Positions 18,835 to 36,691 of a stretch of 64,000 nucleotides of DNA are shown here, one piece after another. The stretch is taken from positions 992,001 to 1,056,000 of the forward strand of contig CAWFXA010000002.1 of the NCBI GenBank assembly GCA_963819655.1, in the 5' to 3' direction. How positions within the stretch are numbered: position 1 is the stretch's first letter; each line of letters opens with the position of its first letter. Below the pieces are notes generated by a model that saw only the letters and a list, made by a program, of their open reading frames with translations, had not been told where the DNA came from and searched no databases. Origin of the DNA: an uncultured Chloroflexia bacterium (GTDB lineage Bacteria > Chloroflexota > Limnocylindria > Limnocylindrales > CSP1-4). Both the position numbers and the translations under genes were made by a program.

Positions 18835-18931
18835 GGGAGCGGTCGGGCCCCGGTGGGTCCCCCGGTCTTCAAAACCGGTGACGCCGCGCTCGGCGTGGCG
18901 TGGTGGGTTCGACTCCCACGCGTTCCCGCCA
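18835..18931 (+). tRNA. selC: tRNA-Sec (anticodon UCA)
   Basis: Acceptor GGGAGCG/CGTTCCC, 6-bp D stem with CGGT loop, CCGGT-CTTCAAA-ACCGG anticodon arm, 9-bp variable stem, GTGGG-TTCGACT-CCCAC T arm, G discriminator, encoded CCA. Confidence 0.96.
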
Positions 18932-33625: not shown

Positions 33626-34498
33626 CTACGCCGTCGCCGCTCGGCGGACCTCGTAGCCGCCTCCCTCCGCGGGACGGATCTCATAGCTCGGCTGGTCGTA
33701 GACGGTCGGGCCTCGTCGAGCGAGGCCGTCGACCAGTCGGTATCGCGAGAAGTGCCAGGGGCACTCGATGCAGCCGTCGACCAGCCGGCCCTCGTTCAAG
33801 GGGCCCCCGGCATGAGCGCACACGTTGTGCATCGCGTGAAGGGTGCCCCCGATGCGCACCACCACGAGGTCGTTGATGCCGGCGCGCATCTTGGTCGGCG
33901 TCGCCTCGGGAAGGTGATCGAGATCGGTCACGGTGCCCGTATCGAGACGGACCCATCTGGTGCCCGCCCCGCGGAACGCATGGCGGCTGACCATGTTGCC
34001 GAGCAGGTACACGACGTCTCCGCCGACGAACGCCCCTGCGCTCACGATCAGGAACCCGATGATCGACAGCGCGATCGGCACGGTCCGGTCGACGGGCGCG
34101 CCGGCGCGCATCAGTGCTGACACGATCAGCACGAGCAGGGTCACGGTCATCAAGGACGCGTGCAGCGTCGCTCGGGTCAGTGGCGTGCCGGTCGTCTCGC
34201 TGTAGTCGGCCAGGCCCGACAGCGCCGCGAGGACCATGAACACGATCGTCCCGATCAGGACGATGTCAGCCGCGGTCGGCTGGCCGAGCACATCCAGGAT
34301 GACGACCCCGAGCAGCATGCCGATCGGGATGTCGGTCGACGCCGCATGGAGTGGGTGGCCGAGCCAGCGGCCGTTGAGCAGGTCCCGGATCGGCGGCATC
34401 GCGCGGAACAGCGCCGAGGTCCAGCGGTGGTTGAACTCCCCGAACGGCCGTGCCCAGCCGTCGTTCAGTGATACCAGTCGAGCCAGCAGTCGTGCCAT
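33626..34498 (-). CDS. DUF2231-type membrane domain + Rieske 2Fe-2S protein
   Basis: GRWLGHPLH membrane domain; Rieske motifs CAHAGGPL and CPWH; GGAGGT RBS. Confidence 0.88.
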   Translation of the reverse strand: MARLLARLVSLNDGWARPFGEFNHRWTSALFRAMPPIRDLLNGRWLGHPLHAASTDIPIGMLLGVVILDVLGQPTAADIVLIGTIVFMVLAALSGLADYSETTGTPLTRATLHASLMTVTLLVLIVSALMRAGAPVDRTVPIALSIIGFLIVSAGAFVGGDVVYLLGNMVSRHAFRGAGTRWVRLDTGTVTDLDHLPEATPTKMRAGINDLVVVRIGGTLHAMHNVCAHAGGPLNEGRLVDGCIECPWHFSRYRLVDGLARRGPTVYDQPSYEIRPAEGGGYEVRRAATA

Positions 34499-34561
34499 CG
34501 ACCCACCTCCCGTTGAAGGAATCTACGCCGCGCGGGTCGTGTATGGATGCTGCAAGCGTGG

Positions 34562-34671
34562 CCGTCCACATTCCGTCCACACTCGGGGGAATCTCGGGGA
34601 TAAGCCATCGACCATTCAGACGAAGTTCGTGGATAAGGCGGTTGTGGCCGTATCGACCCGGCGGGTACATT
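34562..34671 (+). promoter_or_regulatory. DnaA-box-like cluster with sigma70-type promoter
   Basis: CCGTCCACA at 34562 and 34573; reverse-strand TTATCCCCG (34595-603) and TTATCCACG (34628-36); TTGTGG-18bp-TACATT (34642-71). Confidence 0.5.
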
Positions 34672-34675
34672 TCGT

Positions 34676-34870
34676 CCTGCCCGAAGGGGCAGGTGCGAAC
34701 CGCCAGACCGCACCGAGGAGCGATCCTCGGGACGGTCCCGGAAGCCGGGTTCGATAGTCGCAAGGCCGTCGAGCGAGGATTTCGGGCGGAGCGTAATGAC
34801 TCCGGACTTGTTCGGAGCCGTTGCGAGACGACGGGCGGTCCTCCCACCAGTTCCTTCGGGCGCTTTCGTG
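34676..34870 (+). ncRNA. Candidate ~190-nt multi-branched non-coding RNA, family unassigned
   Basis: About 22-bp 5'/3' closing stem and arms capped by GCGA and GCAA tetraloops. G-U pairs work only on the + strand. It starts just after a -10 box and contains no credible ORF. Confidence 0.65.
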
Positions 34871-34960
34871 TGCGCGGGAGTCTCTTGTCGCGCTCCGATG
34901 CGCCGAAAACGTGGTTCCTGGACTGCACGACTGGGCCGAAGCGAGCGCGCCGCTGACGCT

Positions 34961-35078
34961 CCGCAGCGCCCGACCGTGTCTGTGAGCGCGGAATCACGCC
35001 GCAGCGCCCGATCGTCTTTGAAGCACGGATCTCGCCGCAGCGTCGGTCCGACCATGAACTACGCGGATGGCAGCGTCC
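34961..35078 (+). repeat. Degenerate 33-38-nt tandem repeat (3 units plus a partial)
   Basis: CCGCAGCG at 34961, 34999 and 35035, GCAGCG at 35070; each unit contains ...TGA...CGGA. Confidence 0.55.
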
Positions 35079-35244
35079 TTAGGTCCGGAAGAGGTCGGTT
35101 AGACCTCGCTCTGGCCCCTACCGACCAGCCATAACGCCGCTATGGATGCGCGATGTGCATGGTCGACGGCTGTGAAGGAGTCGATGGCGGCCCGGATCTC
35201 GACATTGCGTCGCTGGGATGCGCGTACTTCATGGTTGGGGAGGG

Positions 35245-35320
35245 GATTCGGGAGGCCGGGCGTGATTGGGAGTCCGGGCGGGTCGCGGGCGGCCGGGCGT
35301 GGATTCGGGCGCCCGGGCGG
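35245..35320 (+). repeat. G-rich 18-20-nt tandem repeat (4 units)
   Basis: GATTCGGGAGGCCGGGCGT / GATTGGGAGTCCGGGCGG / GTCGCGGGCGGCCGGGCGT / GATTCGGGCGCCCGGGCGG. Confidence 0.55.
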
Positions 35321-35431
35321 CCAAAAGCCGTGCTCGTATCTCGCCTCGAGCCTGATCTGCAGTCTGCCAGGCATACGTTCGACCGATCGCGCCGTGTGCG
35401 CCGACATGCTCGGCACGGTAGCCTCGCGCCG

Positions 35432-36691
35432 GTGACCCCGCCTCTTGACGTCCGCCCCGCCGAGGACTGGCGCCGCCTACTCGTGGTCTTCTGGCTCACG
35501 TCGATGGTCGAGGCCCTCGGCGTCAGCCAGATCTTCGCCCTGGTCCCCTCGTACCTGCGGGAGATGGGCGTTCCACAGGACGAGCGGCTGGCTTTCGTCG
35601 GCTTGTTCTCTTCACTGATCTTCGTCGTGGGCATGCCGCTCGTCCCGCTGTGGGGCGTGTGGGCCGATAAATACAGCCGCAAGGCCGTCATCGTGCGGAG
35701 CGCGCTCGTCGAGGCAGTCGTGTTCGCCGGCGTCGCTCTGTCGCGCGAACCCTGGCAGCTCGCACTGAGCATGCTGCTGATCGGCTTCCAGCTGGGCAAC
35801 ACCGGGGTGATGCTGGCCGGCATCCGGGACGTCACGCCACTCGCCCGACTCGGCACTGTCATGGGCATCTTCGGTGCCTCGACCGCTGTCGGTTTGGCGC
35901 TCGGCCCGACACTCGCCGGACTGCTCATCGACGGGTTCGGCTGGTCGCTGTCGGCAGTGTTCTGGTTGTCGGCCGGCCTCTCGATCGCGACGGCCTTGCT
36001 GGTCACGTTCGGCTCACGCGAGGTGCGCCCGTCCGTGATCCCGCAGGGGCGGATCGTCACCCTCGCGTTCGGGGCGATGCGGGCCGTTCTGACGGACGCG
36101 ACCGTCCGGCGGATCTTCCTGATCTTCGGTGTCTCGTTCCTGGCGACCCAGATGAGCCGGCCATACCTTCCGGTCGTCGTGGAAGGGCTCGCCGGGACCG
36201 GCGCCGGCCTCGCGTCGGCGATCGCGCTCGTCATGGGCACTGCGGCGCTGGTCGGCGGGCTCATCGCGCCGCTCGGTGGCTGGCTGGGCGACCGCGTCGG
36301 TTTTCGACCCGTCCTCGTGGCGGCCCTCGCGGGTGGTGGCGTGGTCCTGGCACTGATGCCGTTCGTGCCGTCGGTGGCCGCGCTGGCGGGCCTCGCCGTC
36401 ATCCTCGCGGCCGCGACGGCCACGGTCAGCGCGATGGTGTTCGGCATGCTTGCGACCGACGTGCCGGCCGACCGCCGCTCCGCCACGCTCAATCTCGTCT
36501 ACCTGCCGCTGTACACGGCTGGGATCATCGGGCCGGCGCTCGGCGCCGCGGTCGTCGGGCTCGGTGGATTACCCGCGCCATTCGTCCTCGGCGCGGCGGT
36601 GTTTATCGCGGGCGCGATCGTGATCGCCACGCGCCGGGCGTCGAGCACGGCGGTCGCCGCCGCTCCTGGTGCGGTCAGCCTCGATCCCTGA
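35432..36691 (+). CDS. MFS transporter (DHA1/MdtG-like)
   Basis: PLWGVWADKYSRK and GWLGDRVGFR. TAGCCT lies 7 nt before GTG 35432. Confidence 0.88.
   Translation: MTPPLDVRPAEDWRRLLVVFWLTSMVEALGVSQIFALVPSYLREMGVPQDERLAFVGLFSSLIFVVGMPLVPLWGVWADKYSRKAVIVRSALVEAVVFAGVALSREPWQLALSMLLIGFQLGNTGVMLAGIRDVTPLARLGTVMGIFGASTAVGLALGPTLAGLLIDGFGWSLSAVFWLSAGLSIATALLVTFGSREVRPSVIPQGRIVTLAFGAMRAVLTDATVRRIFLIFGVSFLATQMSRPYLPVVVEGLAGTGAGLASAIALVMGTAALVGGLIAPLGGWLGDRVGFRPVLVAALAGGGVVLALMPFVPSVAALAGLAVILAAATATVSAMVFGMLATDVPADRRSATLNLVYLPLYTAGIIGPALGAAVVGLGGLPAPFVLGAAVFIAGAIVIATRRASSTAVAAAPGAVSLDP

Follow-up and report, generated by a model that had tools for sequence, protein, structure and literature searches.

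Abundant bacterial RNAs whose two ends pair in a long closing helix include 6S RNA (Rfam RF00013), which is encoded by a stand-alone gene, is about 185 nt long, mimics an open promoter through a large central bubble between a closing stem and a terminal stem, binds the sigma-70 holoenzyme and templates product RNAs. Ms1 RNA of Actinobacteria is likewise an abundant multi-hairpin RNA with paired ends, of about 300 nt, which binds the RNA polymerase core. It is hard to find by sequence, being detected by Infernal only in close relatives of mycobacteria, and its loci are defined by synteny with a HAD-IB hydrolase gene (PMC9130861). In Y RNAs and bacterial YrlA, a conserved stem made of the two ends surrounds a variable inner module and is read by one protein, Ro (Rsr). 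Other structured RNAs, for example the Chloroflexi-1 and raiA motifs in Rfam, were found by conservation and covariation and are restricted to one lineage and highly expressed, with no assigned function. Clusters of DnaA boxes, in which several consensus-like 9-mers lie close together and in helical phase, are found in Bacillus subtilis, in Escherichia coli (datA/DARS) and at DnaA-regulated promoters such as that reported for gidAB-parAB of Pseudomonas aeruginosa (PMC13438810).

The locus described here shares some features with each of these. It lies in the window, a 64,000-nt stretch (positions 992,001 to 1,056,000 of contig CAWFXA010000002.1, assembly GCA_963819655.1) from a Chloroflexota MAG lineage (Candidatus Limnocylindrales), within a gene-free gap running from 34498 to about 35430. 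An initial annotation, made from the sequence alone, had placed here an unassigned multi-way-junction RNA of ∼190 nt, and this observation is confirmed: window 34677–34863 (+) is a discrete, structured, non-coding RNA gene of about 185 nt. Its features, in window coordinates, are as follows.

34562–34581 (−), two leftward DnaA-box-like 9-mers, CCGTCCACA and TCCGTCCACA, at offsets −117 and −106 from the helix start
34595–34603 (+), second rightward box, CGGGGATAA, at offset −84
34628–34636 (+), proximal box, CGTGGATAA, at offset −51, abutting the −35
34642–34647 (+), −35-like hexamer TTGTGG, with an 18-nt spacer to the −10
34666–34671 (+), −10-like hexamer TACATT, 6 nt upstream of the 5′ end seen at 34677
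34677–34863 (+), the RNA gene, a four-way-junction structured RNA
34678–34690 (+), 5′ strand of terminal helix P1, TGCCCGAAGGGGC
34692–34704 (+), 5′ strands of the inner closing helices (GGTG, GA, ACCGCC)
34706–34737 (+), arm 1, a hairpin capped by a GNRA loop (GCGA)
34738–34785 (+), arm 2, a long hairpin capped by CGCAAGG (GCAA loop)
34787–34830 (+), arm 3, one long hairpin with apical loop CTTG
34834–34848 (+), 3′ strands of the inner closing helices (GGCGGT, TC, CACC)
34850–34862 (+), 3′ strand of P1, GTTCCTTCGGGCG
34864–34870 (+), conserved tail TTTCGTG, a terminator-like U-rich tract after P1

The helices proposed in the initial annotation are present where it placed them, with GCCCGAAGG (34679–87) pairing with CCTTCGGGC (34853–61) within a full helix of 13 bp (34678–90 with 34850–62), GGCAGGTG pairing with CACCAGTT, ACCGCC (34699–704) pairing with GGCGGT (34834–39), and arms 1 and 2 carrying GCGA and GCAA loops. 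However, its arms 3 (CGGAG/CTCCG) and 4 (CGTTG/CGACG) were mis-drawn, since in the minimum free energy fold these bases form one long arm in which CGTAATG pairs with CGTTGCG and CTCCGGA with TTCGGAG, both stems covarying; the RNA is therefore a tight four-way junction with three arms, not four. The fold is far more stable than expected by chance, with an MFE for the + strand of −110.2 kcal/mol against −84.1 ± 5.0 in 200 shuffles (z −5.18, no shuffle as good) and a z of −3.22 for the − strand, and our model R1 scores 191.4 bits on the + strand and 32.4 on the − strand. On 78 distinct copies, 96.4% of cells pair and 20 of 63 pairs change on both sides, against 5.9 ± 1.6 in shuffles (0 of 500) and 4–6 in slid controls; on 23 cross-genus sequences, in an alignment that was fitted to the model, 37 of 63 pairs do so, against 19.3 ± 2.6 in shuffles and 10–18 in slid controls. 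Related genomes are not independent, however, and shuffle controls overstate support for related sequences.

In arm 1, 4 of 12 pairs covary within the genus and 6 of 12 across genera, and the loop reads GCGA, GUGA, GCAA or GUAA in all the homologues inspected. In arm 2, 8 of 16 pairs covary, and G85–G90 of CGCAAGG are invariant, with C84 nearly so, in 23 cross-genus sequences. In arm 3, 4 of 8 apical pairs and 3 of 4 basal pairs covary, although the arm varies between genera and in some carries the loop GAGAUCACAUCAAGG, which also occurs in a short paralogue. Across genera, 5 inner pairs of helix 1 and 3 of 5 pairs of helix 2 of the closing region change on both sides. In contrast, 12 of the 18 pairs of the whole closing helix (P1 plus its inner extension) never vary in the 78 copies, and across genera the only changes in P1 are C–G to U–G and G–C to G–U. 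The outer 13 bp hardly vary, so that covariation neither supports nor refutes this pairing, and a local hairpin GCCC-GAAG-GGGC is an alternative. Six further exact copies of the 5′ helix motif in the genome lack the 3′ partner, and most appear to lie in coding sequence.

The transcript is discrete and very abundant. In total, 20 RNA runs of 14 studies hold 17–30% of the sampled words, and in the four metatranscriptomes of four studies whose contigs were aligned to the window, cover is confined to 34677/34687–34863 with depths up to 85,505, while depth is 0 across 34400–34663 and 34880–35047. Adapter-like sequence abuts at 34677 on the 5′ side and at 34860 on the 3′ side. These data are assembled contigs, many from relatives (under 95% alike), and give no strand and only single-contig hints of the ends; no end-to-end joint was reported, although contigs cannot exclude circularisation. 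The presence of a conserved −10-like hexamer (30 of 30 aligned copies, with at most two variant bases), a −35-like hexamer conserved as TTGTNN and a tail conserved in all 30 copies, with conservation stopping sharply outside the −10-like hexamer and the tail, supports a stand-alone bacterial sRNA gene having its own promoter-like sequence and a defined 3′ end, although a consensus scan calls no promoter or terminator here.

The RNA matches no catalogued family. Searches of Rfam 15 returned only tRNA-Sec for the whole window at gathering thresholds, only a P17 noise hit (E 1.6) for 34400–35500 at E ≤ 10, only a viral-element noise hit (E 1.3) for five paralogue or related loci at E ≤ 5, and only a tRNA for nine cross-genus homologue loci at gathering thresholds; the models of the orphan lineage-specific RNAs, including Chloroflexi-1 and raiA, gave no match. 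The initial annotation had found no tmRNA, RNase P or SRP signatures, and SRP RNA, tmRNA and RNase P RNA indeed lie elsewhere in the genome, while ARAGORN finds nothing in 34500–35000. Its interpretation is only partly supported. A stand-alone stable RNA is supported, and a new class is supported so far, but a divergent 6S/Ms1-like RNA, the reading it put first, is not supported. The region gives no RF00013 match at E ≤ 10 (gathering threshold 46.4 bits), and neither does the whole genome nor any of 151 genomes of the class, although this model also misses in 7 of 14 control genomes. The structure supported by covariation has joining strands of 0–3 nt and no central bubble, and unlike 6S RNA it has short hairpin paralogues with the same helix. 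For Ms1, the host is likewise a high-G+C organism but is Chloroflexota rather than an actinobacterium, and Pfam searches of the five neighbouring genes find Rieske/DUF2231, AAA_33, EamA and MFS domains, with no match for one gene and no HAD-IB hydrolase. The Y-RNA reading also fails, in that a search with PF05731 (TROVE) gives 0 matches at E ≤ 0.001 in a genome that is 91% complete, there is no tRNA-like module, and the terminal helix is perfect, without the bulge typical of Ro sites.

The RNA is found in one family of uncultured Chloroflexota and in no other sampled family, one marginal hit aside. A full-length copy is present in 32 of 36 same-genus genomes, and model R2 finds it in 68 of 151 genomes and 26 of 49 sampled genera of the family; the 23 genera missed may reflect true absence, or loss to the stricter filters and incomplete MAGs. 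In the class sample, whose families are denoted f1 to f5, the hits were f1 28/44, f2 0/6, f3 0/49, f4 1/50 (marginal) and f5 0/1. It is also the largest member of a family-restricted group of small RNAs, the short members of which (73–85 nt) keep the same terminal helix around a single hairpin. The host genome holds five genes with the same helix and promoter layout. Relative to orphan RNAs such as Chloroflexi-1 and raiA, this RNA adds a shared terminal-helix module and a shared, putatively regulated promoter across paralogues. The exact helix pattern occurs in 72 of 151 family genomes, against 0 for the reversed control pattern, and in the phylum sample it occurs in 9 of 16 family genomes and in 0 of 284 genomes outside the family. 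The genomic neighbourhood provides no functional clue: in the host genus the Rieske/DUF2231 gene lies divergently upstream in 95 of 110 loci, which overlap in origin (only 79 of 107 RNA copies are distinct), but it appeared in only 2 of the loci of other genera, and no gene neighbour is conserved across genera. No protein partner was found.

Upstream of the RNA, the DnaA-like boxes noted in the initial annotation are real, as are the repeat arrays downstream. The four 9-mers, at −117, −106, −84 and −51, are close to TTATCCACA/TTGTCCACA, the DnaA-box consensus, and are identified only by this likeness. The core TTCGTGGA of the proximal box is invariant in 30 copies, and this box sits at −50/−51 in 36 of 36 cross-genus loci and at −50 to −52 in 14 of 16 short paralogues. 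The second rightward box is invariant in 30 copies and reads CGTGGACAA at the same offset in other genera, while the TCCACA cores of the leftward boxes are conserved in the upstream alignment and recur at −117/−116 and −106/−105 in most of the 36 cross-genus loci. In these loci there are 130 boxes in 6,300 nt upstream (20.6 per kb), against 42 in 105,349 nt elsewhere (0.4 per kb), and in loci without the Rieske gene the boxes stay with the RNA. The layout of box, 3–5 nt and TTG occurs five times in the genome, in four of these RNA genes plus rsmG. Similar boxes precede a ParA gene and lie in the dnaA–dnaN gap, although the latter carries weaker forms (GTGGAC/GTGGAG) than the RNA promoters do. 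The boxes before rsmG and parA echo the P. aeruginosa case. The genome has a single DnaA with a single Bac_DnaA_C domain, and no second DnaA-type binder was found. In contrast to the described clusters, those here sit at fixed offsets in front of a family of small RNA genes. Literature searches on DnaA boxes and small RNAs, on non-coding RNA in Limnocylindria (which returned no paper), on 6S or structured RNA in Chloroflexi, and on sRNA in Ellin6529, CSP1-4 or Limnocylindrales (where the results were uninformative) revealed neither this RNA nor a DnaA-controlled sRNA family.

Our results thus establish a stand-alone gene for a very abundant structured RNA, with two arms capped by GNRA loops and a variable third, closed by a nearly invariant 13-bp helix, found in one family and accompanied there by short RNAs sharing that helix. 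What follows rests on inference. From sequence, all these genes are inferred to be read from a sigma-70-type promoter whose −35 element abuts a DnaA-box-like 9-mer, and in the long RNA the spacings of the four boxes are multiples of 11 bp, so that all four lie on one face of the helix; DnaA, the only protein in the genome with a DnaA DNA-binding domain, therefore most likely controls their transcription, which would tie RNA output to replication status. More speculatively, the terminal helix may be a common handle that seals both ends against exonucleases, ends transcription at the TTTCGTG tail and is probably read sequence-specifically by a shared protein partner, while the inner domain of the long RNA would fold compactly through its GNRA loops and carry the specific function as a stable, protein-bound regulatory RNA. 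Binding of DnaA or of a partner protein is in each case inferential, and we assign this overall reading a probability of about 0.5. In a bolder and doubtful form, which the data do not rule out, DnaA would drive a dedicated, modular family of RNAs, four phased boxes switching on RNAs whose invariant helix is the docking site of a single protein, and the four-way-junction RNA would report or feed back on replication status, in parallel to the link between Y RNAs and replication in animals; this would be a new RNA class and the first sRNA regulon under DnaA.

Alternatively, the RNA may be a trans-acting base-pairing sRNA in which the apical loop of arm 3, and the equivalent loops of the short paralogues, act as seeds and the terminal helix serves only as a stabilising clamp and terminator, the paralogues forming a multi-copy set under one regulator in the manner of OmrA/B or Qrr. 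This is consistent with the paralogues being multi-copy and often in tandem, with shared ends and promoter layout, and with apical loop motifs such as GAUCRCAUCAA and GUGCUUGCAUC that recur in short RNAs across genera and in arm 3 of the long RNA of some genera. However, the arm 3 loop of the long RNA is not conserved between genera, arms 1 and 2, with invariant GNRA-loop contexts, are unexplained by a pure seed model, and a duplex test of six loops against the dnaA, rsmG and parA 5′ regions gave nothing beyond background (best result 3.2% of 600 random segments, uncorrected), so that we consider this unlikely. Less likely still is a functional analogue of 6S or Ms1 RNA that would bind RNA polymerase (holoenzyme or core) and sequester it. 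Its size, abundance and paired ends would fit, and the absence of detectable 6S RNA from the host genome and the class leaves the role unfilled, but in addition to the structural and syntenic differences above, 6S is equally undetectable in the sister families that lack this RNA, so that the two distributions are not complementary and the comparison is uninformative, and short hairpin paralogues sharing the helix do not fit a polymerase mimic.

It is very unlikely that the functional unit is instead the DNA, with the box clusters acting as DnaA-titrating or DnaA-modulating loci like datA/DARS or the B. subtilis clusters and transcription being incidental or only tuning DnaA occupancy. At least five clusters of phased boxes are dispersed in the genome, and their offsets are conserved across genera, yet compensatory changes, invariant loops and very high RNA levels are not expected of a by-product, and the boxes lie upstream of the promoter and are not transcribed. 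Least likely is a cis-acting leader or riboswitch, a piece of a mobile repeat or a coding region. Although the RNA lies in a 930-bp gap upstream of an MFS gene on the same strand and long ORFs overlap it, the MFS gene follows in only 19 of 110 loci, at distances of 160–667 nt, and transcript cover stops at 34863; the RNA is single-copy per genome with conserved upstream synteny in the genus, the overlapping ORFs have no Pfam match, and indels of 1–2 nt and paired substitutions fit RNA rather than coding constraints.

Limnocylindria (Ellin6529) are among the commonest soil and freshwater Chloroflexota and have no cultured model. In metatranscriptomes labelled as rhizosphere, sediment and mine drainage, this RNA reaches depths typical of housekeeping RNAs, yet it belongs to no known family. 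Its terminal helix, kept nearly base-for-base across genera among the 49 sampled and shared by several paralogues, points to a specific partner, and if DnaA really controls the promoter array that looks like four phased DnaA boxes, this would tie replication initiation to a small-RNA output. Even if the mechanism proves ordinary, the family is a clean new entry for RNA databases and would improve the annotation of thousands of MAGs and the handling of abundant non-rRNA reads in metatranscriptomes.

Bases 34677-34865 of the + strand fold into one closed structure, with a predicted energy of -110.2 kcal/mol against -84.1 +/- 5.0 for 200 dinucleotide shuffles (z -5.18, none as good), while the opposite strand gives z -3.22. 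The structure and its surroundings in the window are as follows.

34678-34690 with 34850-34862 (+), 13-bp terminal helix
34692-34704 with 34834-34848 (+), inner closing helices
34706-34737 (+), arm 1, with a GCGA loop
34738-34785 (+), arm 2, with a GCAA loop
34787-34830 (+), arm 3
33626-34498 (-), Rieske [2Fe-2S] plus DUF2231 membrane-protein gene, starting at 34498
35153-36691 (+), ORF of an MFS transporter gene, with a likely start near 35430
34961-35042 and 35245-35319, two tandem repeat arrays downstream of the RNA, a 38-nt unit x2.2 and a 19-nt unit x3.9
18835-18927 (+), selenocysteine tRNA gene (Rfam tRNA-Sec, 71.7 bits)

The observation of a structured RNA made in the initial annotation holds, and its closing helices and first two arms are correct to the base. 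The bases that it drew as a third and a fourth arm, however, make one long hairpin, in which CGTAATG pairs with CGTTGCG and CTCCGGA with TTCGGAG. ORFs that overlap the RNA have no Pfam match. The Rieske/DUF2231 gene is transcribed divergently from the RNA, an arrangement kept in 95 of 110 loci (largely of the host genus) and in two loci of one other genus, whereas the distance to the next gene downstream varies widely between genomes.

The region is conserved as an RNA. BLAST finds a single full-length copy, 75-93% identical, in 32 of 36 genomes of the same genus, the four without one being 59-89% complete, and the host genome has one copy. In a 30-copy alignment, conservation begins abruptly at a TACATT hexamer and ends just after GCTTTCGTG. 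When pairs were counted on 78 distinct copies, using the structure that RNAalifold predicted from the same alignment, 96.4% of cells pair and 20 of 63 pairs change on both sides, against 5.9 +/- 1.6 in shuffles (0 of 500 reach 20) and 4-6 in controls with the 3' partner slid by 1-3 columns. Related sequences inflate shuffle statistics and the slid controls are the fairer comparison, although the structure came from the same alignment. The covarying pairs lie in the three arms and the inner closing helix; of the 18 pairs of the whole closing helix, 12 never vary, so covariation says nothing about its outer part.

The RNA is transcribed as a discrete and very abundant species. Twenty metatranscriptome runs from 14 studies hold 17-30% of the sampled words of a 401-bp stretch centred on the RNA. 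In four runs from four studies (rhizosphere, rhizosphere, sediment, mine drainage) compared with 34400-35100, contigs cover only 34677/34687 to 34863, with summed word depths peaking at 547, 85,505, 8,075 and 63,196, while depth is zero from 34400 to 34663 and from 34880 to 35047 in all four runs, these flanks serving as a silent control. Single contigs carry Illumina adapter-like sequence that abuts directly at 34677 on the 5' side and after 34860 on the 3' side, which fits a start 6 nt after TACATT and an end at the foot of the terminal helix. As these are assembled contigs, many from relatives less than 95% alike, they give no strand and no true quantification. The + strand is instead inferred from the orientation of the promoter and tail, from G-U pairs in the terminal helix that would be C-A mismatches on the other strand, and from a covariance model of the full RNA (R1), which scores 191 bits on the + strand and 32 on the - strand. 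In one run (X12), a contig leaves the long RNA at arm 3, at window position 34807, and continues with sequence that resembles the 3' part of a 73-nt short paralogue; this hints that the short RNAs are also expressed, or that the assembler joined them through the shared helix.

No catalogued RNA family accounts for the locus. Rfam 15 at gathering thresholds finds only the tRNA-Sec in the window, and with permissive filters and E<=10 the 1.1-kb gap gives one noise hit at E 1.6. Nine homologue loci from other genera give only a nearby tRNA, and ARAGORN finds nothing. The SRP RNA, tmRNA and RNase P RNA of the genome lie elsewhere. No 6S RNA is detectable in this genome or in any of 151 genomes of the class, but this is weak evidence since the 6S model also misses in half of the control genomes.

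An exact search for the 5' motif in species-representative genomes returned 83 loci, nearly all in MAGs labelled Candidatus Limnocylindrales or Limnocylindria, Chloroflexota, or 'uncultured Chloroflexia', with a few carrying other depositor labels; the host is therefore a Chloroflexota lineage rather than the actinobacterium that the G+C content might suggest. Model R1 found full-length homologues in four further genera of the same family and in no other family, scoring 34-90 bits against about 190 within the genus. A model of the 5' half (R2) matches 68 of 151 genomes and 26 of 49 genera of the family. In a class-wide sample of five families (f1 to f5), R2 matches 28 of 44 genomes in f1, 0 of 6 in f2 (the 1.1-Mb genomes), 0 of 49 in f3, 1 of 50 in f4 (E 0.003, marginal) and 0 of 1 in f5. 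These searches use the stricter Infernal filters on MAGs, so misses do not show absence, and E-values from our models are rough. As all genomes are MAGs of related organisms, the counts are not independent.

The homologues printed from other genera are 175-205 nt long and keep the same termini. Their arm 1 ends in a GNRA loop in the context GAG-YR-AUC, arm 2 is capped mostly by CGCAAGG and arm 3 is variable. On 23 cross-genus sequences aligned to the model, 37 of 63 pairs change on both sides, against 19.3 +/- 2.6 in shuffles and 10-18 in slid controls, although this alignment is fitted to the structure and leans towards it. The outer terminal helix changes only to wobble pairs (C-G to U-G, G-C to G-U).

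The long RNA belongs to a wider group that shares one terminal helix. The host genome (G000; contigs C2 and C3) has four further genes with the same 5' GCCCGRAGGGGC and 3' CTTCGGGCG halves and a similar tail, each 74-85 nt long and enclosing one hairpin. The exact GGTTCCTTCGGGC form is present in three of them, while the fourth, at C2:1280719, reads GGTCGCTTCGGGCG. These short RNA-like genes, which also share the box-plus-promoter layout of the long RNA, and other loci of the host genome considered below are:

G000:C2:63800-63873, short RNA-like gene
G000:C2:1280719-about 1280795, short RNA-like gene
G000:C3:551128-551210 and G000:C3:551360-551444, two short RNA-like genes in tandem
G000:C2:398389-398430 and G000:C3:935527-935570, pairs of consensus DnaA-like boxes directly upstream of rsmG (GidB) and of a ParA-type ATPase gene
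G000:C3:98629-98820, four DnaA-like boxes within 45 nt followed by an unassigned stretch of about 130 nt
G000:C2:468485-468760, the dnaA-dnaN gap, about 560 kb from the window on the same contig

The exact two-part pattern with a 45-75 nt interior occurs in 72 of 151 family genomes and 32 of 49 genera, and the reversed control pattern in none; this tally and the family tally of R2 include one unpublished genome (G257), on which no claim depends. In a phylum-wide sample the pattern occurs in 9 of 16 family genomes and in 0 of 284 genomes of 71 other families. Across the family the short RNAs fall into at least three recognisable subtypes that are conserved across genera. One apical-loop motif, GAGAUCACAUCAAGG, also forms the tip of arm 3 of the long RNA in two genera. 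In effect, the long RNA looks like a short one with arms 1 and 2 added.

These genes also share a promoter with DnaA-box look-alikes. Upstream of the long RNA, 30 copies share two leftward TCCACA cores, CGGGGATAA, TTCGTGGAYAAG, and TTGTGG followed by an 18-nt spacer and TACATT. In 36 loci from many genera, 9-mers within one mismatch of TT[AG]TCCAC[AG] or its complement sit at -117/-116, -106/-105, -84/-83 and -51/-50 from the start of the helix, giving 130 boxes in 6,300 nt upstream (20.6 per kb) against 42 in the other 105,349 nt (0.4 per kb). The spacings are 11, 22 and 33 bp, so the boxes lie on one face of the DNA. Of 16 short paralogues examined, 14 have the proximal box at -50 to -52 and 10 have a second box at -92 to -94. 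Only 137-190 nt, holding the box array, lie between the long RNA and the divergent Rieske/DUF2231 gene, and the boxes could also act on this gene.

In the host genome the layout of box, 3-5 nt, TTGNNN, 16-20 nt and TANNNT occurs five times, of which four are these RNA genes and the fifth precedes rsmG (GidB, 5.8e-34). Paired consensus boxes also precede the ParA-type ATPase gene; in other bacteria rsmG and parA lie near the origin and are DnaA-regulated. The dnaA-dnaN gap, the likely replication origin, has an AT-rich stretch next to five GTGGA/TCCAC cores. The unassigned stretch at C3:98629-98820 ends in a hairpin plus TTTCGTGG, which resembles the tail of the RNA family, and may be a further small RNA without the shared helix; the ORFs downstream have no Pfam match. 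GTGGATAA occurs only 14 times in 3.49 Mb, and the genome has one DnaA and one DnaA-type DNA-binding domain. All of this makes DnaA the obvious candidate binder, although binding is inferred solely from likeness to a general DnaA-box consensus that was not computed here.

The interpretation proposed in the initial annotation, a stand-alone stable RNA that is either a divergent 6S/Ms1-like polymerase-binding RNA or a new class, is partly supported. The 6S reading fails on both of its testable criteria, the model score and the central bubble, and the Ms1 reading fails on synteny and taxon; a polymerase binder of this kind appears doubtful. A Y-RNA reading fails on the absence of Ro. A base-pairing sRNA with the arm 3 loop as seed is possible but unlikely, while a DNA-level DnaA-titration locus is very unlikely and a leader, repeat or coding region less likely still. 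No Rfam family matches and our literature searches did not list this RNA, although databases and open-access text are not the whole literature; we regard it as a new class, and it is very likely that this is a real new RNA family.

What the analysis establishes is a stand-alone, abundant RNA with a four-way junction and sealed ends, whereas its regulation, its partner and its mode of action are inferred. In the reading that we favour, to which we assign a probability of about 0.5 for the whole chain, DnaA controls the synthesis of this RNA and that of its paralogues, a step that we consider somewhat more likely than not. The invariant terminal helix would be a common module that protects the ends, terminates transcription and is read sequence-specifically by a shared partner, since a helix needed only for pairing would be free to covary over 49 genera. 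Protein binding as the mode of action remains tentative; the compact inner domain, with two invariant GNRA-loop contexts, points to a protein-bound regulatory or scaffold RNA rather than a simple antisense regulator.
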